IMG/VR virus record: IMGVR_UViG_3300000304_000005
Span: 1-64,000 of that record
From: a virus
Taxonomy: Duplodnaviria > Heunggongvirae > Uroviricota > Caudoviricetes
DNA: 64,000 bases
Direction: 5' to 3' (one strand)
This document shows positions 2,254 through 18,544 of the stretch, piece by piece. The position numbers and the translations under genes were made by a program. The notes beneath the pieces were generated by a model. The model had not been told where the DNA came from, did no database searches, and saw only the letters and a list, made by a program, of their open reading frames with translations. Within the stretch, counting starts at the first letter, position 1, and every line of letters starts with the position of its first letter.

Positions 2254-3420
2254 ATGCCAAATGTTGAAGACGCTGTAAAATGGGCAGAAAATATTGCAAG
2301 AGATAATTCGCATGGGTATTCTCAAGGTGGCAGGGAGGGGAAGGATTTCGATTGTTCTTCTCTTGTTTGTCGTTCACTAAGAGCTGCTGGATTTAATGCG
2401 CCATATCCGTCTTTTTCTACACGTTCTATGGGTTCTTGGCTAGAATCTAACAATTGGGAATGGCATAATGGTACATCAGGTGTAAGACGTGGTGATATCA
2501 TGTGGAAAACCGGACATACTGCATGGGCTAGTTCCAGTACCACAATTACAGAAGCTTGTATCGATGAGAATGGTAACATTACCGGTGGTCAGGTTGGTGA
2601 CCAGACGGGGAATGAGATTCGCATTACTAGTATGAACCGATATAACTGGAAGGGATATTGGCGTTACAAGGGTGAGAAGCCTAAGAAGAACATGAACGAT
2701 GCCAAGATTGCGGATATTCCCAATCAGGTTTATACTGGCAAGGAAGTCAAGCCTGCTATCACAAGTAACGCAGGTGCTACTTTCGATGTGTCATATAAGG
2801 ATAATGTCAAAGTAGGATATGGCACTGTAACTGCAACTGGCAAGGGAGACTGGACTGGTTCTGTGTCTAAGACATTCAAGATTCTGCCTGAACAGCTTGT
2901 TAAGTTTACCGATGTTGACCCTACACAATGGTATGTAGATACTCTTGCAAAGGCTGTCGAGCTTGGTTATATCAACGGTTATTCCGGTACATCTCTTATC
3001 GACCCATATGGTAGTCTCACACGCGGTCAAGCTTGCTGCATGATTGCGAATGCTGAGGGAGCTAAACTTGAAAGTGCATTTTCTGATGTTGTAGCATCTC
3101 CATATTATTATGAAGCTGTAAATTGGGCTGAGGAAAATGAAATCGTAAATGGTGATGGAGGCGCATTTAGACCAGATGACCCCTGTACAAGGCAAGAATT
3201 CTGTTGTATGCTATATAATCTTGCTGGTAATCCTGACACTGCTGGCGAGCCAACTAGGTACAGTGATTGGAATAGCGTTGCAGACTGGGCTAGAAATGCT
3301 ATCGCATGGTGTATTGAAGTAGGTGTTCTATCTGGTAACTCCGGCATGATTCGTCCTAATGATAATTGCCAGCGTTGCGAAGCTGCCGCACTGCTGGTTA
3401 ATTATAAAAACCTAACCTAG
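2254..3420 (+). CDS. cell-wall hydrolase / endolysin: N-terminal Cys-peptidase (CHAP/NlpC-P60-like) plus three C-terminal SLH repeats
   Basis: N-terminal DFDCSSLVCR with a candidate catalytic Cys. Three C-terminal ~55-aa repeats (FTDVDPTQWYVDTLAKAVELGYINGY..., FSDVVASPYYYEAVNWAEENEIVNGD..., YSDWNSVADWARNAIAWCIEVGVLSGN...) match the S-layer-homology domain consensus. RBS AGGAGG upstream. Confidence 0.6.
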   Translation: MPNVEDAVKWAENIARDNSHGYSQGGREGKDFDCSSLVCRSLRAAGFNAPYPSFSTRSMGSWLESNNWEWHNGTSGVRRGDIMWKTGHTAWASSSTTITEACIDENGNITGGQVGDQTGNEIRITSMNRYNWKGYWRYKGEKPKKNMNDAKIADIPNQVYTGKEVKPAITSNAGATFDVSYKDNVKVGYGTVTATGKGDWTGSVSKTFKILPEQLVKFTDVDPTQWYVDTLAKAVELGYINGYSGTSLIDPYGSLTRGQACCMIANAEGAKLESAFSDVVASPYYYEAVNWAEENEIVNGDGGAFRPDDPCTRQEFCCMLYNLAGNPDTAGEPTRYSDWNSVADWARNAIAWCIEVGVLSGNSGMIRPNDNCQRCEAAALLVNYKNLT

Positions 3421-7469: not shown

Positions 7470-8270
7470 TTGGAGGGATTTGAAATGAGCAACGTGGCAT
7501 TTGATTATTACAAAAACAATTCTAATAATGCTGTTATTTATGATTTCGTTACACATCAGAAAATTGGTACAGCGACAGATAACAATAATACTTATGATGG
7601 TAATCGCGCAGGTATGAGTTGTGAGGTAGATGCTTTTCGTACAGATGAAGAGATTAAGGCTATGATTGATGTATATGATAAACATATTAATGAAGCATCG
7701 AATAACGAAAAGAAAAAATTAGCATGTCGTAACAAGATGCTGTTCATTATCGGTATCAACATCGGTTTGCGTGCCAGTGATTTGCGTACCCTTACGTGGG
7801 ATTTCTTCTTTGAGGATGTGGGTAACGGAGAACTGAAATTCAGAGATGGATATAATCTTCGTCCTAAGAAAACCCGCAAGACTGGTAAGTATGTGAAGCT
7901 GTATTTCAATGATAGTGTGAAGAAGATTATCAACTGGTATATTTCGATGTACCCGATTAATAACCTTGGCGATTTTATTTTTAAATCTCGCGTTGGTGAT
8001 GATGCGATTACTGTAAACGCTATGTGGCGCGTTATCAAGGATGCTGCGAAGGAAGCGGGTATCAAGCGAAACATTGGCACTCACAGTCTTCGTCGTACAT
8101 TCTGCCGTAGGGCATATGATAATGCCGTAGATAAAAGCAAGGCTCTACTTATCATTCAAAAAATTCTAAACCATTCAAGCCAAGCTGTTACCATGCAGTA
8201 CCTTGGATTGCTGAATGAAGAGATTGAGGATGTGTTCGATAGTATGAACATCGGCTTCGATATGATTTAA
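7470..8270 (+). CDS. int: tyrosine recombinase / integrase
   Basis: C-terminal catalytic signature GTHSLRRTF (HxLR) ... LNHSSQAVTMQY (LGH...Y nucleophile). Arg-containing LRASDLR box upstream. Confidence 0.6.
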   Translation: MEGFEMSNVAFDYYKNNSNNAVIYDFVTHQKIGTATDNNNTYDGNRAGMSCEVDAFRTDEEIKAMIDVYDKHINEASNNEKKKLACRNKMLFIIGINIGLRASDLRTLTWDFFFEDVGNGELKFRDGYNLRPKKTRKTGKYVKLYFNDSVKKIINWYISMYPINNLGDFIFKSRVGDDAITVNAMWRVIKDAAKEAGIKRNIGTHSLRRTFCRRAYDNAVDKSKALLIIQKILNHSSQAVTMQYLGLLNEEIEDVFDSMNIGFDMI

Positions 8271-10344: not shown

Positions 10345-10416
10345 GCGCTTGTGGTGAAATGGTATCACAGCAGACTCATAATCTGTTAGTTCAGGGTCCG
10401 AATCCCTGCGGGCGCA
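10345..10416 (+). tRNA. tRNA-Met/Ile2 (anticodon CAT)
   Basis: Manual fold: acceptor GCGCTTG/CGGGCGC (two G-U pairs), D stem GTGA/TCAC, anticodon stem GCAGA/TCTGT with loop CTCATAA, T arm CAGGG-TCCGAAT-CCCTG. 72 nt. Flanks extend the acceptor helix. Confidence 0.6.
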
Positions 10417-10448
10417 CGTTGCCAAAATGATATTTGATTATGTTACGC

Positions 10449-10522
10449 GCTCCTATAGCTCAATCGGAAAGAGCCAGAGTTTTCTACACTTTAGGTTGCA
10501 GATTCAAGTTCTGCTAGGAGCG
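10449..10522 (+). tRNA. tRNA-Arg (anticodon TCT)
   Basis: Manual fold: acceptor GCTCCTA/TAGGAGC perfect 7 bp, D stem GCTC/GAGC, anticodon loop TTTCTAC, T arm GCAGA-TTCAAGT-TCTGC. 74 nt. Confidence 0.65.
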
Positions 10523-10554
10523 CGTAGTATAATTGCTACAATGTTTAAAGATGT

Positions 10555-10641
10555 GCCGGTGTGCTGGAACTGGAAGACGGAACGGATTCAAAATCCGCGG
10601 GTAGGAATACCGTGAGGGTTCGACTCCCTCCACCGGTACCA
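10555..10641 (+). tRNA. tRNA-Leu (anticodon CAA), type II with long variable arm, CCA encoded
   Basis: Acceptor GCCGGTG/CACCGGT, anticodon loop TTCAAAA, variable hairpin GGTA-GGAA-TACC, T arm GAGGG-TTCGACT-CCCTC, then ACCA. Confidence 0.55.
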
Positions 10642-12012: not shown

Positions 12013-13446
12013 ATGTGTAAAAATATACATGAGCAATATGTTGAAAAACTTAAAAAGGTACATTCAAATATTATTGCTATTGATAAATATATTGATATGT
12101 ACACAAATATTGGGCATAAGTGTTTGAAGTGTGGCTACGAATGGAGCGTTAGACCATATAGTTTACTGCATGCAAAATACGGATGTCCAAAATGTTCATA
12201 TGTAGAAAGAGCGAAAGCAAGAAAGCTTACGCAAGAAGAATATAAAAAACGTGTATTAGAAAGTAATCCAAATGTTGAAGTAATCGGTGAATATATTAAT
12301 GCATCGACTCCAATAAAACATGTATGTAAAAAATGTGGATATGGATTAAACGGAGAATGGCTTACTATACCATCTCATATTATGAATGGGCACGGATGTC
12401 CGGTATGCTCTGGAAATATTATAGGCTCAGCCCCAGAATACAAGAATAGTATTTGGTCACAAGATGAATATCTTAATTTCTTTAAAAACTATATGTCAGA
12501 AGAACAAATGAAGATAAACATGCCAAATAGTCACGCAAAAATAGATGTTATTTGCCCTGTTTGTGGGAAACATAAGAACATATCTCCAAATACATTATGG
12601 AAACAGGGGCTTGGTTGTATTTGCAGTGATGGAGTAAGTTATCCAAATAAATTTATGTTCTCATTCTTAGAACAAATTGGGATTGATTTCAATAGAGAAC
12701 AATCATTTGAGTGGAGTAGCGGGAAAATATATGATTTTTATATTCCGTCTTTGAATTGCATTATAGAATGCAATGGAGAGCAGCATTATAAAGGATGGAA
12801 TAAAGTTAAAAATAGCGCTAAGTTTCAACGATTAAACGATGAAGAAAAATATAAGATGGCTATTGATAATGGAGTAAACAAAGATAAATATATTATTATT
12901 GATTGCAGTCGTTCAAATAAAGATTTTATTAAGCACAATATAGAGCAAAGTAATTTGTTAAATATATTGAATATTAATATATCTGACATTGATATTGAAC
13001 AATGTAATATTTTTGCTACAAGCAATTTAGTAAGACGTATTTGCGATATGTGGAACGATAAGCTTACTATCAAACAAATACAAGAAAAAACAAAAATCGT
13101 TACTGTTCGAGAATATTTAAAAAAGGGAAATGAGCTAGGATGGTGCAACGATTATACCGAAAATGAAGCTCGTAAAAGAGGCGCAAGATATAATAAAGGC
13201 AGATGGGTGAATGTTTATTGTTTGGAATTAAATAAAGTGTTTACATCTATATCAGAAGCGGCAAAACAAACCAAATTAAATTCAGAATCAATACGTATGT
13301 GCTGCTCTGGTAAATGGAATCAATATAATAATCAACATTGGTATTATCTTTATGATAAAGCTATGAAGGATGGAACTGAAATTAAGGGTGCTATTGCACT
13401 TGGTTTAATATCAGAAGAAGAGGCTATAAAACAACTTAACATTTGA
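12013..13446 (+). CDS. homing-endonuclease-like protein (tandem Zn-ribbons, endonuclease core, C-terminal NUMOD-like HTH)
   Basis: Repeated CxKCGY...CPxCS Zn-ribbon units. Core IIECNGEQHY (Vsr/PD-(D/E)xK-like). C-terminal VYCLELNKVFTSISEAAKQTKL resembles the DNA-binding modules of phage homing endonucleases. Confidence 0.4.
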   Translation: MCKNIHEQYVEKLKKVHSNIIAIDKYIDMYTNIGHKCLKCGYEWSVRPYSLLHAKYGCPKCSYVERAKARKLTQEEYKKRVLESNPNVEVIGEYINASTPIKHVCKKCGYGLNGEWLTIPSHIMNGHGCPVCSGNIIGSAPEYKNSIWSQDEYLNFFKNYMSEEQMKINMPNSHAKIDVICPVCGKHKNISPNTLWKQGLGCICSDGVSYPNKFMFSFLEQIGIDFNREQSFEWSSGKIYDFYIPSLNCIIECNGEQHYKGWNKVKNSAKFQRLNDEEKYKMAIDNGVNKDKYIIIDCSRSNKDFIKHNIEQSNLLNILNINISDIDIEQCNIFATSNLVRRICDMWNDKLTIKQIQEKTKIVTVREYLKKGNELGWCNDYTENEARKRGARYNKGRWVNVYCLELNKVFTSISEAAKQTKLNSESIRMCCSGKWNQYNNQHWYYLYDKAMKDGTEIKGAIALGLISEEEAIKQLNI

Positions 13447-13744: not shown

Positions 13745-14923
13745 ATGTATCTTGATAATGCGGCTACGACAAAACCAAGGCAAGAAGTAATCGACACGAC
13801 GCTTGCATATCTTGCAGAATATTGGGAGAATCCATCTGCACTTTCATTCAATAGCCCAAAGATAAAAAAAGATATTGAAATCGCTAGAAATACCGTAGCT
13901 AAATCAATTAATGCTAAGGGCGGTCACAACATCTTCTTTACTTCTGGCGGTAGCGAGGCAAATTGTTGGGCTATTCAAGGATTCATTAACAATCGATTAA
14001 ACAATATGCATGTTCCATATATCATTACTACCAAGATTGAACATAAGTCGATTATGGAATGCGTAAAGAATCAAACGTTAGCAACGGTATATTATCTTGA
14101 TGTAAATACTGACGGATTTATTTCTATTGAAGAGCTTGATGATACAATTTCTTTAATGTTAAGCTGTGGAGTTGAACCAAAAGATATTCTCGTATCGATT
14201 CAATTTGCCAATAATGAAGTCGGTACGATTCAAGATGTTATTAATATCAGCAATGTGTGTCATATGTATGGTTGCGTTTTTCATACCGATGCTGTACAGG
14301 CTTTCGGGCATGTATATATTGACGTTGATGCTATGGGAATCGATATGTTGTCTGCTTCTGCTCATAAGATTGGTGGATGCAAAGGAACGGGCTTTCTATA
14401 CATTAAAGATGGTATTGAAATTAATCCGCTGATTTATGGTAGCCAAATGGATGGTATGCGAGGTGGAACAGAAAACGTTGCAGGAATCATGGGTATGGCT
14501 AAGGCAGTTGAGCTTATTGACCTGAATGACGCAAACAATGCCAAGTTCGCTAGGGATTATTTTATCGATAAGCTTGTTGATATCGGATGTAAACTTAATG
14601 GTCCATATGGAAGTGCTGTATCTCGTTATCGTCTGCCAAATAATATTAACGTGATTCTACCGGACAATATCAACGGAGAAAGTTTTGTTCTCGCCATTTC
14701 AATTGATGGTATTGATATTGGAACTGGTTCTGCTTGCAACTCACATTCTGTTGAACCATCGTATGTTCTTAAGGCAATGGGACTAACGGACGATGAAGCA
14801 AATTGTAGCATTCGTATATCCATTCCGAGTAATATGACGATGGATGATGTTGATAATGTTATGAATAGTATTAAACAAACTATTGATGTTATTTTATCTA
14901 TTCCAGAAAATGAAAATAATTAA
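13745..14923 (+). CDS. cysteine desulfurase (class V aminotransferase, NifS/IscS-like)
   Basis: PLP-lysine motif SASAHKIGGCKGTGFLYIK. C-terminal active-site GSACNSHSVEPSYVLKAMG (IscS SSGSAC...SHVL). Full-length 392 aa. Confidence 0.75.
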   Translation: MYLDNAATTKPRQEVIDTTLAYLAEYWENPSALSFNSPKIKKDIEIARNTVAKSINAKGGHNIFFTSGGSEANCWAIQGFINNRLNNMHVPYIITTKIEHKSIMECVKNQTLATVYYLDVNTDGFISIEELDDTISLMLSCGVEPKDILVSIQFANNEVGTIQDVINISNVCHMYGCVFHTDAVQAFGHVYIDVDAMGIDMLSASAHKIGGCKGTGFLYIKDGIEINPLIYGSQMDGMRGGTENVAGIMGMAKAVELIDLNDANNAKFARDYFIDKLVDIGCKLNGPYGSAVSRYRLPNNINVILPDNINGESFVLAISIDGIDIGTGSACNSHSVEPSYVLKAMGLTDDEANCSIRISIPSNMTMDDVDNVMNSIKQTIDVILSIPENENN

Positions 14924-14932
14924 GGTTATATA
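14923..14932 (+). promoter_or_regulatory. AAGGTTATAT promoter-like motif (copy 1)
   Basis: Exact 10-mer 20 nt upstream of the RNA ligase start. Confidence 0.4.
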
Positions 14933-14951
14933 CTAAGAGAAATGAGCTAAT

Positions 14952-17213
14952 ATGCTAGTAAATGGTGAGCGAGCGCTTGCATACATCGTAACTATCGATG
15001 ATATTACACCTATTGACGGAGCTGATAATATTGAACTTGCGCGTGTTAGTGGCTGGCGGGTAATTGTTAATAAAGAGCAATTTAAACCCGGCGATGCTGC
15101 CGTCTTCTTCGAAATTGATTCATTGGTTCCTGAAACTGAATGGTCTGAATTCTTGCGCCCAAAGAAATTTCGCGTGAAAACATATCGGCTAAATAAATTT
15201 AAAGTTGTATCGCAAGGGCTTCTTATGCCGATGGATATTCTTCCACAGAATAAAACGTTTAATGTTGGTGACGATGTTACCAACATTCTTGGTGTTACCT
15301 ATTACGTCAAGGAAGATAATTATCGTAAAGCAAAAGACGGCAATCCAAATGAGAAGTATAATCGTATGGCAGCAAAGCATCCGAAGCTTGCAAAGAAGAA
15401 GTGGTTCCGTTGGCTCATGAAGCGTATGTGGGGCAAGAAGCTGCTGTTTGTATTTTTGGGTAGACATATTGATGAGAAGAAGTATAAGTTCCCTGATTGG
15501 ATTAAACGCACGGACGAAGAAAGGTGTGAAAATACACCTTGGATTACACAGTCTAAAGAACCGTTTGTTTGCACGGAAAAAATTGACGGTTGTTTCGATT
15601 ATAATACTAAGATTAGAACCAATGAGGGCCATATTCCAATTGGTAGAATTGTTAATCAGAAATTACCGATTCTAGTTGCATCTTACAATGAAGACAAACA
15701 AATCGTAGAATATAAAAATATTGTTGATTATCATAAAATCAAAGTATCACATCCAGTTCTAAAAATTGGCGTTGGTTATCGTGGACATGGCAACAGAAAT
15801 AAATATATTACATGTACTGATAACCATGAATTTTATACACCGACCGGATGGAAACAAGCGAAGGATTTAAAGCAGGGAGATATCGTATATCATTTTACCG
15901 AGTCTTTCCCGTATGAAATTAAGCAACTTATTCTAGGAAGCTTGCTTGGAGATGCATCTATTAATGCAAACGATAAAGACGGTGGATATAGGTGTGTTCA
16001 TTTTACACAATCAGACAAGCAAATTGCTTATTTTAATTACAAGAAGAACCTTCTTGGGAAATATGCGTTGGGAGAAAGGACAAGGACAAGCGGATATGGA
16101 AGCTTGATGCATGATATGCATACTACTACAAATCTTGAGCTTAATAAATTCTTAAATGAACATTGCATGAAAAACGGGAAGAAGTTTGTTACCCAAGAAT
16201 GGTGCAACGAACTTGACCCTATGGGCCTAGCCTTCTGGTATATGGATGATGGAAGTATTGCTAACCGCGATAACGACAAGCTTGGATGTAGAATTCATAT
16301 TTCAACAAATGGGTTTTCTCTACAAGAGAATGAAACGTTGGCAAATATGCTAAGAGACAGGTTCGGCATCGAGGCTACGATTGGAGACAAAGAAACGTAT
16401 AAGGGATATACGCTTATTCTTGATGTGAAAAATACCGAAAGGTTCTGTTCGTTGATTGCTCCATATGTATGCAATAGTATGAAATACAAACTCCCCAAAA
16501 AGTATCAAGATATAAAGTGCTGCTATGATAACATTTGCTTTGATTCTGGTATGAACATTGTTGAAGTTGATATTAAGTCCATAGAGAATATTGATGAACA
16601 CAAAGAATATTTCTTTGACCTTACGATTGAAGATAATCATAATTATTTTGCACAGTCTATCCTTGTTCATAATTGTTCCACAACGGTGTTTCTAGACGCA
16701 ACAAAACGTAAGCACGATTTTGGAGTGTGCTCTAGAAATGTTAGGCAAATAACACCAGATATAGAGAATTACCATACTAAATCTTCTGGAACAAATGTGT
16801 ATTGGGAAATGGCATTGAAGTATGATATGCAAAATGCACTTGAAGATATCGCAAAGAAATATGATGTTCAACGTGTTGTGCTTCAGGGAGAGACATATGG
16901 AGAAGCCATTCAGGGAAATCCATTGCACCTAAAGTATCGTGATTTTGCCGCATTTAATCTTGTGTTTGATGGCGAGCGACTAGGTTCAATTCAGGCAAAG
17001 GAAATTCTTGATGATTACAAGATTCCCTTTGTTCCAATTATTGACGATGCATATTATATGCCAGACACATTTGAAGAGCTTAAGAAACAAGCAGACGGTA
17101 AGAGCACAATCAATCATAAATGTCTACGCGAAGGATTCGTTTATCGTAGCTATGATGGTAAGCAATCTGCTAAAAACGTTAGTGTAAAATATCTGCTTAA
17201 GCAAAAAGATTAA
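14952..17213 (+). CDS. RNA ligase (DRB0094/Rnl-like nucleotidyltransferase) interrupted by an in-frame intein
   Basis: N-terminal LAYIVTIDDITPIDGADNIELARVSGWRVIVNKEQFKPGDAAVFFEIDSLVP matches the RNA-ligase family N-domain. Ligase motif I CTEKIDG is followed immediately by the intein Cys1. Extein resumes at CSTTVFLDATKRK. Confidence 0.6.
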   Translation: MLVNGERALAYIVTIDDITPIDGADNIELARVSGWRVIVNKEQFKPGDAAVFFEIDSLVPETEWSEFLRPKKFRVKTYRLNKFKVVSQGLLMPMDILPQNKTFNVGDDVTNILGVTYYVKEDNYRKAKDGNPNEKYNRMAAKHPKLAKKKWFRWLMKRMWGKKLLFVFLGRHIDEKKYKFPDWIKRTDEERCENTPWITQSKEPFVCTEKIDGCFDYNTKIRTNEGHIPIGRIVNQKLPILVASYNEDKQIVEYKNIVDYHKIKVSHPVLKIGVGYRGHGNRNKYITCTDNHEFYTPTGWKQAKDLKQGDIVYHFTESFPYEIKQLILGSLLGDASINANDKDGGYRCVHFTQSDKQIAYFNYKKNLLGKYALGERTRTSGYGSLMHDMHTTTNLELNKFLNEHCMKNGKKFVTQEWCNELDPMGLAFWYMDDGSIANRDNDKLGCRIHISTNGFSLQENETLANMLRDRFGIEATIGDKETYKGYTLILDVKNTERFCSLIAPYVCNSMKYKLPKKYQDIKCCYDNICFDSGMNIVEVDIKSIENIDEHKEYFFDLTIEDNHNYFAQSILVHNCSTTVFLDATKRKHDFGVCSRNVRQITPDIENYHTKSSGTNVYWEMALKYDMQNALEDIAKKYDVQRVVLQGETYGEAIQGNPLHLKYRDFAAFNLVFDGERLGSIQAKEILDDYKIPFVPIIDDAYYMPDTFEELKKQADGKSTINHKCLREGFVYRSYDGKQSAKNVSVKYLLKQKD
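15591..16673 (+). mobile_element. intein (361 aa) with LAGLIDADG homing-endonuclease domain
   Basis: Starts CFDYNTKIRTNEGHIPIGRIV (A block). Ends ...SILVHN followed by extein +1 Cys. Two LAGLIDADG motifs LILGSLLGDASI and LAFWYMDDGSI. Confidence 0.6.
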
Positions 17214-17227
17214 AAGGATGTGGTTTT

Positions 17228-17596
17228 GTGTATCGTATTTATGATGCTGAAAATAATTGTTGGCGAAATGATATGATTGTATTTGATGATGGTGCATTAG
17301 GAGTGTTAAACAATTCATTATTTCACTCATATAATGTAGATGTTATTTATGATGAGTCTCCATATACTGTTCATTATCCCACTGGTATCATTGATAAAAA
17401 CGGCTTTGAGATTTTTGAAGGAGATATTTGTACATGTCCAAATGAAACCAGTGGCGTTGTGGCGTTTAGTTCTCAGATTGGCGCATATTGTATTTTTGAT
17501 GATGATAATCATCTATATTATGTTCTTGACGATGAAGGTGCTGGCTTTACTGAAATTGTTGGAAATGTGTTTGATGGTGTTAAAGTAGTTAGGTAA
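17228..17596 (+). CDS. YopX-family protein
   Basis: MYRIYDAENNCW ... IIDKNGFEIFEGDI matches the YopX signature (DKNGkeIyEGDI). Confidence 0.5.
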   Translation: MYRIYDAENNCWRNDMIVFDDGALGVLNNSLFHSYNVDVIYDESPYTVHYPTGIIDKNGFEIFEGDICTCPNETSGVVAFSSQIGAYCIFDDDNHLYYVLDDEGAGFTEIVGNVFDGVKVVR

Positions 17597-17600
17597 ATTT

Positions 17601-18473
17601 ATGGACATTCTAGACGGACGGATTGTTGCAAATCAAATTAAAGATAATGCAAGAATCTTAGTAAGTCGTATTGAAAACGAATATGATGATGTGGTTAAAT
17701 TAGTTGTTATTCAGGTCGGCAATGACCCGGCATCATGTACATATATACGCAATAAAGAAAAGGCATGCAGCTATGTTGGAATTGAAACTGAAACGCGCCG
17801 GTTTGACTCAAATATTTCAACAGATATGCTCGTTGATTTCATTGAAAATTTAAACGAAGATGATTCAGTCAATGGTATTTTAGTACAGCTGCCATTGCCA
17901 GTGCATCTCAATGAGCAAAAAATCATTAATGCTATCGACCACGATAAAGACGTTGATGGTTTTACGTTCATTAATGCCGGTAAGCTCGCTCGTAACTACA
18001 AGAAGAAAATGCAGCTTTTGCCATGTACGCCCATGGGAATCATGAATATTCTTTCATGGTATGATATCAATGTTGCCGGTAAGAATTGCGTGGTAGTCGG
18101 GAGAAGCAATATTGTTGGCAGGCCAATGGCTGAACTGCTATTAAATTCTAATGCAACGGTAACTATTTGTAATTCGTATACTTCAAACCTGAAGGATATT
18201 TGCAAGAGTGCCGATGTGCTGATTTGCGCAATCGGCAAGCCAAAGTTCTTTACCGAAGAACACATTAAAGATGGTGCTATTATTATCGATGTTGGAATGA
18301 ATAGAGATAACAACGGTAAGTTGTGTGGCGATGTAGATTTCAATAGCGTATCGAAGCTAAGCGGCGCTATCACGCCTGTTCCCGGAGGTGTCGGGCAGAT
18401 GACGGTTGCAATGCTTATGGACAATTGCATTACAGCTTATTGTTTACAGCACAACCTACTCTATATTATGTAG
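17601..18473 (+). CDS. folD: bifunctional methylenetetrahydrofolate dehydrogenase/cyclohydrolase
   Basis: Full-length similarity pattern: ILDGRIVANQIKDN..., VQLPLPVHL, DVDGFTFINAGKL, CTPMGIMNILSWY, VVVGRSNIVGRPMAELLL, PVPGGVGQMTVAML. Confidence 0.75.
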   Translation: MDILDGRIVANQIKDNARILVSRIENEYDDVVKLVVIQVGNDPASCTYIRNKEKACSYVGIETETRRFDSNISTDMLVDFIENLNEDDSVNGILVQLPLPVHLNEQKIINAIDHDKDVDGFTFINAGKLARNYKKKMQLLPCTPMGIMNILSWYDINVAGKNCVVVGRSNIVGRPMAELLLNSNATVTICNSYTSNLKDICKSADVLICAIGKPKFFTEEHIKDGAIIIDVGMNRDNNGKLCGDVDFNSVSKLSGAITPVPGGVGQMTVAMLMDNCITAYCLQHNLLYIM

Positions 18474-18544
18474 ATTTTATGAAGATATAAAAGCTAATTT
18501 GATTTTAAAACAATTATTGAGTACAATTATCTTGTAATACTAAT

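Follow-up and report, generated by a model that had tools for sequence, protein, structure and literature searches.

An RNA ligase gene interrupted within its active site

The gene considered here lies in the first 64,000 nucleotides of the IMG/VR record IMGVR_UViG_3300000304_000005, a virus of the Caudoviricetes; this whole stretch (positions 1 to 64,000 of the record) is hereafter the window. The gene is an open reading frame (ORF) that codes for an RNA ligase precursor, in which an intein-like insert with its own LAGLIDADG domain separates the N-terminal part of the ligase (N-extein) from the remainder (C-extein) immediately after the active-site motif I (Table 1). A protein identical to the precursor (P0001) is found on a 126-kb JGI contig.

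As the initial annotation had it, the frame runs through the insert as a single plus-strand ORF, and its translation reproduces both the insert length of 361 aa and the length of 392 aa for the joined exteins. Likewise, the boundary strings recur where that annotation had placed them: the N-extein ends in ...VCTEKIDG (aa 213), followed directly by the Cys that opens the insert (CFDYNTKIRTNEGHIPIG; aa 214, nt 15591), while the insert closes with SILVHN (aa 574, nt 16673), after which the C-extein begins with CSTTVF, its Cys575 being the +1 residue. However, the insertion had been placed exactly at the catalytic lysine of KxDG; the motif is the right one, but the insert follows its Gly and not the Lys. 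The insert accordingly parts Gly213, with which motif I (K210-I-D-G213) ends, from Cys575; in the numbering of the Naegleria gruberi RNA ligase (NgrRnl) it falls between Gly173 and Ser174, three residues past Lys170 and one past Asp172. Splicing is predicted to yield ...TEKIDG-CSTTVF... (junction peptide TEKIDGCSTTVF). Conservation was assessed throughout on an alignment of 45 precursors with the same insertion site, which are 39-96% identical.

Table 1. Features of the intein-containing ligase gene, with positions counted from the start of the window
Feature	Position (nt)	Strand	Remarks
Intein-containing RNA ligase precursor	14952..17213	+	Complete uninterrupted ORF, 753 aa plus stop
N-extein, aa 1-213: OB domain, linker and start of the nucleotidyltransferase up to motif I	14952..15590	+	Aligns to NgrRnl 3-123 and 138-174
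N-terminal OB-fold domain typical of Rnl5, aa 9-94	14976..15233	+	PF21189 PHA02142 OB, 76.8 bits
TDEER motif, T187..R191, then Cys192; unoccupied 'site a'	15510..15527	+	Equals NgrRnl Thr145..Arg149, ATP contacts
Motif I, K210-I-D212-G213 (adenylylated Lys, metal-binding Asp)	15579..15590	+	Intein begins right after the Gly codon
Class-1 intein, 361 aa, aa 214-574, 'site b'	15591..16673	+	Pfam Intein_splicing and TIGR01445/TIGR01443 above cut-off
Intein Cys1 codon TGT, predicted N-S acyl shift nucleophile	15591..15593	+	C214 invariant (45 homologues)
Block B, T289-D-N-H292 (TxxH)	15816..15827	+	T289 and H292 invariant
I-SceI-like LAGLIDADG homing-endonuclease domain, aa 325-498	15924..16445	+	PF03161 LAGLIDADG_2, 110 bits, E 1e-31
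LAGLIDADG motif 1, LILGSLLGDASI, aa 326-337	15927..15962	+	G333 and D334 invariant
LAGLIDADG motif 2, LAFWYMDDGSI, aa 426-436, D432/D433	16227..16259	+	M431, D432, D433 and G434 invariant
Blocks F and G (YFFDLTIEDNHNYFA..SILVHN), penultimate His573, terminal Asn574	16608..16673	+	TIGR01443; D556, H573 and N574 invariant
C-extein, aa 575-753; first residue the predicted Cys+1 nucleophile	16674..17213	+	Aligns to NgrRnl 174-339

The joined exteins form an Rnl5-type ligase

With the insert removed, the extein aligns from end to end with NgrRnl (5COT; E 2.7e-42), and the alignment crosses the junction without a gap (CTEKIDG/CSTTVF in the query against VTVKLDG/SSMTVY in NgrRnl, the slash marking the point of insertion). 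That the two extein halves should align contiguously to RNA ligases, as the initial annotation proposed to check, is borne out by both NgrRnl and intein-free Rnl5 ligases. The Pfam RNA_ligase profile exceeds its curated cut-off already in the precursor (54 bits) and rises to 71 bits once the insert is taken out, with the spliced protein covering profile positions 1-170 of 171; the match to the PHA02142 OB profile likewise exceeds its cut-off. The spliced protein thus combines an OB domain (PF21189, aa 9-94) with a nucleotidyltransferase (NTase) domain (PF09414, aa 203-386), and has no appended C-terminal domain.

The catalytic positions can be matched one by one to those of NgrRnl: T187 to Thr145, R191 to Arg149, K210 to Lys170 and D212 to Asp172 in the N-extein; E647 to Glu227 (motif III), F668 to Phe248 (motif IIIa), E727 to Glu312 (motif IV) and K741 to Lys326 (motif V) in the C-extein; and R7 and D56 of the OB domain to Arg4 and Asp53. 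In NgrRnl these residues include the adenylylated Lys, the carboxylates that act on the catalytic metal and the contacts to the ATP phosphates, among them Arg149 and Thr145 (PMC7261155). Within motif I, conservation is complete for K210 and G213 and at least 90% for D212, and the motif residues of the C-extein are invariant or nearly so. In an AlphaFold model of the precursor (mean pLDDT 80.6), compared with the PDB using Foldseek, the exteins together superpose on NgrRnl with a target-normalised template-modelling (TM) score of 0.77-0.79. Hence, by Pfam and by structure, the extein is an Rnl5-type ATP-dependent RNA ligase, which would be expected to seal nicks between 3'-OH RNA and 5'-PO4 ends in duplexes.

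The insert is a class-1 intein with an I-SceI-like endonuclease

The insert is recognized by the Pfam Intein_splicing profile (59.8 bits, cut-off 35.8) and by the profiles for the N-terminal (TIGR01445; 26.4 bits, cut-off 24.5) and C-terminal (TIGR01443; 28.4 bits, cut-off 15.6) regions of inteins. A scan for intein blocks, also suggested in the initial annotation, recovers the Hint splicing blocks, whose catalytic residues are invariant across the 45 homologues. In the structural model, the two ends of the insert superpose on the mini-inteins of RecA, DnaB and DnaE with target-normalised TM scores of 0.5-0.6 and a root-mean-square deviation (rmsd) of 2.1-3 A. The features of sequence and fold that mark class-1 inteins are found here: Cys1; the TxxH and HN motifs; Cys, Ser or Thr at +1; clean removal from the host protein; a Hint fold; and the existence of intein-free alleles, one of which, the orthologue P0121 at the locus L003, shares the synteny of the window ligase. 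The insert is therefore a canonical class-1 intein, whose splicing we infer from its invariant catalytic residues.

The two LAGLIDADG motifs noticed at the outset fall within a single domain in the middle of the insert, whose match to LAGLIDADG_2 exceeds the curated cut-off, and by sequence this domain is closest to I-SceI (3oor, E 8e-15), on which its model superposes with a target-normalised TM score of 0.76 and an rmsd of 2.7 A. The catalytic D334 aligns with the Asp in LILGDAYI of I-SceI, which we take to be Asp44 from a count along the I-SceI sequence. The usual endonuclease domain of inteins is LAGLIDADG_3 (PF14528), which matches here only weakly, at 20.5 bits, below its cut-off. A search of the literature returned nothing specific on inteins with I-SceI-type domains, nor on inteins of the KxDG motif or of Rnl proteins.

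Related inteins with an I-SceI-like endonuclease were also observed outside ligases. At 25-30% identity, a Solirubrobacterales metagenome-assembled genome (MAG) carries a homologous intein in its gene for a family-4 uracil-DNA glycosylase (L020:2551-4638, NVLKC/...VVHN/CRPPGNR), and others are found in the DNA polymerases of T5-like phages. Moreover, a Chthonomonadaceae MAG has an intein at the same position as that of the window, here in an Rnl5-like ligase that is encoded on the chromosome and has KIHG as its motif I (L008:2980-5106). Many other loci in actinobacterial genomes match the whole intein.

The intein is more similar between phages than its flanks

The protein sequence of the intein is 94-96% identical to those at the same site in P0016, P0017 and P0024-P0027, whereas the exteins of these proteins are only 64-78% identical to those of the window. 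P0028 presents the reverse case, with exteins 76-79% identical and an intein of another lineage, 45% identical. The same contrast is evident at the DNA level: against the loci L005 and L006, the intein is 92-97% identical while the flanking genes and the distal parts of the exteins drop to 50-70%, and the intein is bordered by shoulders of 80-89% identity that extend ~300 nt upstream and ~130 nt downstream. An intein more similar than its flanks, with such shoulders, is the pattern expected of homing with co-conversion. Further, when compared with the L005 and L006 copies, the intein as a whole has a ratio of nonsynonymous to synonymous substitution rates (dN/dS) of ~0.1 and its endonuclease domain one of 0.06-0.08, which points to selection for a working endonuclease. 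The contrast between intein and flanks, together with the low dN/dS, argues for recent homing by a functional element, with cleavage of the target as the presumed first step.

The surroundings of the ligase are constant among the relatives examined: its immediate upstream neighbor is a cysteine desulfurase gene, and on the downstream side YopX is either the first or the second gene. Within this syntenic setting, the occupancy of two insertion sites varies, site b being that of the window and site a a second one at the TDEER motif: L003 and L004 have no intein, L001 and L002 have one at site a only, L005 has one at site b only and L006 has both. The exteins of L001 and L002 are 94% identical to those of the window, L001 being the closest extein relative, and 27 nt at the empty b site of L001 (ACAGAAAAAATTGACGGTTGTTCCACAACG) are identical to the joined flanks of the window intein; the corresponding empty site of L003 reads ACCGAGAAGATTGATGGTACTTCTACTACG.

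Three neighboring insertion sites in the ligase clade

The architecture of the precursor is shared, down to 38% identity, by at least 120 cluster-level relatives on metagenomic contigs that are often ~125-135 kb long. An exhaustive search with the spliced extein gathered 7,360 members of the family, and inteins were found by junction parsing in 23 of its 150 best representatives. Junctions were parsed in 262 sequences by means of conserved extein motifs and checked by eye; placement based on hmmalign was dropped, having put inteins in the wrong positions.

Parsing reveals three insertion sites that lie within a span of 25 residues in the ligase. Site a follows the Arg of TDEER (NgrRnl Arg149; R/C), and its +1 residue is Cys in every occupied allele parsed. 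Site c follows the catalytic Lys directly (NgrRnl Lys170; K/CDG). Site b, which the window intein occupies, follows KxDG (NgrRnl Gly173), with Cys, Thr or Ser at +1. The most frequent arrangements are a full-length intein at b (65 sequences) or at a (50) and the absence of any intein (114); rarer are a full-length intein at c (9), inteins at both a and b (6), and mini-inteins at a (4) or b (1). The mini-intein derivatives are P0130, P0137, P0139, P0165 and P0230. The double-intein precursors (P0016, P0017, P0045-P0047 and P0054; L006:1520-4882) reach ~1110-1120 aa and carry homologous inteins only 22 codons apart. In the site-c precursors (P0051, P0068, P0070, P0071, P0077, P0107 and P0112-P0114), the arrangement is TEK/C...HN/CDG, so that the x of KxDG is itself the +1 Cys.

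In neighbor-joining (NJ) trees, the site-a inteins, which are ~32% identical to those of sites b and c, form a separate clade with 100% bootstrap, and the site-c inteins nest within the radiation of the site-b inteins with 97% bootstrap. The monophyly of the site-c inteins themselves is weak (55% bootstrap), leaving room for one or several shifts of site.

The empty sites carry a signal of their own. The window retains at its unoccupied site a a Cys192 encoded by TGT (TDEER-C-ENTPW), the same Cys that is the +1 nucleophile of the second intein in its relatives, and L001 is the mirror image, with site a occupied and a Cys at its empty site b. Among intein-free alleles, the residue at a(+1) is Ile in 53, Val in 29 and Cys in 12. 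Since Ile and Val predominate, a Cys at an empty site is best read as the scar of past occupancy followed by precise loss, and Cys192 of the window is probably the footprint of a former intein; the converse, that such a Cys is a pre-adaptation that favors intein gain, also fits these counts. Taken jointly, the data bring to mind inteins hopping between sites in one active site, each site following a residue that contacts ATP (Arg149, Lys170 and Gly173), with site c having arisen within the site-b lineage by a shift of target of three codons, and with Cys scars, including Cys192, marking sites since vacated. We advance this picture tentatively, and would place its chances somewhat short of even.

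A probable mobile intein in a phage ligase: proposed mechanism and alternatives

We hold it very probable that the window comes from an SPbeta-like phage of ~126 kb, with a Gram-positive host, and that a mobile class-1 intein has invaded its gene for an Rnl5-type ligase. The sequence holds all the residues for four-step splicing, for LAGLIDADG catalysis and for ligase catalysis, and the following course of events is plausible. The whole ORF would be translated into the 753-aa precursor, which is not expected to adenylylate Lys210 or to be otherwise active, as 361 residues of intein stand between motif I and the remainder of the NTase domain. Given the position of the insert in the active site, it is reasonable to suppose that ligase activity depends on splicing. 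Self-splicing would proceed by an N-S acyl shift at Cys214, trans-thioesterification to Cys575, cyclisation of Asn574 and a final S-N shift, to give the 392-aa ligase, with a Cys at the position of NgrRnl residue 174, and the free intein. The LAGLIDADG domain of the latter could then cut intein-less ligase alleles of co-infecting phages at the sequence coding for motif I, upon which repair would copy the intein, along with some flanking extein DNA, into the cut allele. Such a selfish element would persist because its target is an active-site sequence that the host gene cannot change.

Certain observations weigh against this account. First, the spliced extein scores 122.2 bits on the NCBIfam model TIGR02306 (RNA_lig_DRB0094), short of its cut-off of 151.15; hence, we file it under the broader Rnl5/PF09414 family and not under the curated DRB0094 equivalog. 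Of the DRB0094/Rnl-type assignment made initially, the family membership stands and the narrower equivalog does not. Second, no Pnk gene was found beside the ligase in the window, so that the suggested role in RNA repair is contextual. Third, the identical empty b site of L001 could mean that the endonuclease is not sweeping the population, be it for want of co-infection, through lost activity or through a recent precise loss of the intein.

The last point leads to the alternative that fares best, namely that the intein is a decaying relic late in its homing cycle, which may still splice but whose endonuclease is dead, leaving it to vertical inheritance only. The uncut target in L001 and the mini-intein derivatives elsewhere in the family are in keeping with this, but the catalytic Asp of both LAGLIDADG motifs is invariant, the endonuclease domain has a low dN/dS, and the near-identity of intein DNA between divergent flanks, complete with co-conversion shoulders, speaks against it. 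We consider this alternative improbable.

Less probable still is that the phage has co-opted the intein as a post-translational switch, whereby conditional splicing, for instance under redox control through the Cys-rich junction (C207, C214 and C575), would hold the ligase inactive until needed. The location in the active site would make activity depend on splicing, the intein has been kept across a wide range of divergence, and conditional splicing is documented for inteins elsewhere, as for P. horikoshii RadA (PMC4513877). However, nothing in the data requires a switch, and selfish homing accounts for all the observations: the intein comes and goes among near-identical exteins, closely related phages (L003) do without it, and the +1 residue varies between C, T and S.

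The notion that the insert is no intein at all, being instead a group I intron with an in-frame LAGLIDADG ORF or a bacterial intein-like/pretoxin-HINT domain, can be set aside with near certainty. In its favor, organellar group I introns typically encode endonucleases of the I-SceI-like family PF03161, to which that of the insert belongs, and there is a weak PT-HINT match of 21 bits. However, this match falls below the 27.7-bit cut-off, and a group I intron is excluded by the lack of any Rfam match at E up to 0.1 in 14000..18500. Moreover, the reading frame runs unbroken from extein to extein, the junctions coincide exactly with the canonical intein blocks A, B, F and G, and the removal of aa 214-574 exactly restores the ligase alignment. 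The mobile intein thus remains the reading that we adopt.

Genomic context and the phage

The ligase belongs to a family associated with RNA repair, and two of its neighbors in the window have a bearing on this: a cluster of tRNA-Met, tRNA-Arg and tRNA-Leu genes (10345-10641) and a gene for an RNA-repair nucleotidyltransferase of the RlaP family (PF10127; 27398-28201). Further, in L003, where the ligase has no intein, the next gene codes for a Pnk-like kinase (AAA_33/KTI12). For the cluster J mycobacteriophages, a joint role of Rnl, Pnk and tRNAs in RNA repair has been put forward (PMC3706429). Going by what is known of the family and by these gene neighbors, the ligase probably serves the repair of phage RNA, in particular tRNA, and the tRNA cluster, the RlaP nucleotidyltransferase and the ligase suggest an RNA-repair module.

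The immediate vicinity of the ligase also includes two auxiliary metabolic genes: that for the cysteine desulfurase (Aminotran_5; 13745-14923) directly upstream, and, beyond the intervening YopX gene, that for FolD (methylene-THF dehydrogenase/cyclohydrolase; 17601-18473). Two genes upstream of the ligase, a 477-aa ORF (12013-13446) matches HNH/homing-endonuclease PHROGs and looks like a free-standing homing endonuclease; its counterpart in L001 has DUF723/DUF4379 matches, and L003 has none at that position.

As to the phage itself, the three SLH domains of an endolysin encoded in the window (2254-3420) imply that the host is Gram-positive and has an S-layer, while the presence of a tyrosine integrase (7470-8270) implies a temperate lifestyle. 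The YopX gene here and YorH in the relatives point to an SPbeta-like phage of ~126-135 kb, and together with the SLH-domain endolysin these genes would be in line with a Gram-positive type of host. The GC skew changes sign near 50-51 kb, where the genes switch from the plus to the minus strand, that is between a replication/early and a structural module. The phage is without a close cultured relative: among 50,697 phage records, none was matched by the gene in a megablast search. A scan of representative genomes found no close prophage, its best match being a 1.8-kb contig of a Lactobacillales MAG at 42% identity.

Significance

No new mechanism is revealed by this gene. Rather, it fits the rule that inteins settle at the most conserved nucleotide-binding residues of enzymes acting on nucleic acids and extends that rule to the covalent nucleotidyltransferases of the phage Rnl5 type, a large metagenomic family. 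In this family, the gain, loss, miniaturisation and site shifts of inteins are documented by nature with unusual completeness, and it presents a clear population-genetic case of the homing cycle in SPbeta-like phages derived from the gut or the environment. Its well-populated allelic set of inteins, with three sites, full-length and mini forms and Cys, Ser or Thr at +1, could be a source of protein-engineering tools and of new I-SceI-like meganuclease specificities. If the hopping between sites is true, the clade would provide a natural system in which to study how the homing endonuclease and the splicing domain are retargeted over a few base pairs, and to date cycles of gain and loss; that conditional splicing in addition gates the RNA-repair activity is a more speculative extension. 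On the practical side, there is a caution for annotation: ORFs of ~750-1120 aa in this family are ordinary ligases once spliced.

Comparison with known systems

The nearest precedents are themselves phage RNA ligases. RNA-ligase exteins (IPR021122) figure among the inteins of a 2025 survey of actinobacteriophages (bioRxiv 10.1101/2025.01.02.630785). In the cluster J Mycobacterium phage Dallas (gp153, MN062701), as well as in KashFlow, Phoebus, Beem and Bobby, an intein lies at the same position after motif I (QKLHG/C...VLVHN/SSIRVG). These ligases resemble that of the window in combining PF09414 with an N-terminal PHA02142-like OB domain, and their intein is likewise full-length, with an I-SceI-like endonuclease and the same block G. 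However, the cluster J intein is only ~24% identical, the exteins are very distant, motif I reads KxHG, the +1 residue is Ser and the phages infect actinobacteria; multiple insertion sites in this ligase are not seen in the passages of the survey covered here. In the Pseudaeromonas phage vB_PpeM_KLEP7, gp164 (OM654377; PF09414) was deposited as an 'intein-containing RNA ligase'. Its full-length intein is homologous to that of the window (31.5% identity along the entire 361 aa) and closely resembles it in the N-terminal block (CFSYGTPILLEDGSTLPIGKIVNQKLNVNVMSYN), but it is inserted at GEWAG/SNIQ, away from motif I. The KLEP7 ligase resembles Rnl2 in its KIHGTN motif I, and has no match to the OB domain.

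The individual parts of the precursor also have well-studied counterparts. NgrRnl (PDB 5COT) and the Deinococcus ligase DraRnl (DRB0094) share the OB and NTase domains, the lack of a C-terminal domain and all the catalytic residues, but are only ~30% identical and have no intein. The endonuclease domain of the window intein has the fold and both catalytic Asp motifs of I-SceI (PDB 1R7M/3OOR), a homing endonuclease that a group I intron of mitochondria encodes; in contrast to I-SceI, it lies inside a Hint splicing domain and not in an intron.

With respect to the crowding of insertion sites, the closest parallel is the DnaB helicase, in which the intein sites a, b and c cluster in or beside nucleotide-binding motifs (Novikova et al. 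2016, PMC4760082). As in the ligase clade, there are several insertion points, two of them 2-3 residues apart, and some alleles with two inteins. The exteins differ, DnaB being a P-loop helicase and the ligase a covalent nucleotidyltransferase; moreover, unlike in DnaB, the three sites of the ligase clade hold homologous inteins, with those at the Lys site nested among those at the KxDG site. An active-site intein in a phage nucleic-acid enzyme would not surprise the specialist. What the present analysis adds to these precedents is the series of three sites in one active site, the nesting of the site-c inteins within those of site b and the comparative evidence of ongoing homing.

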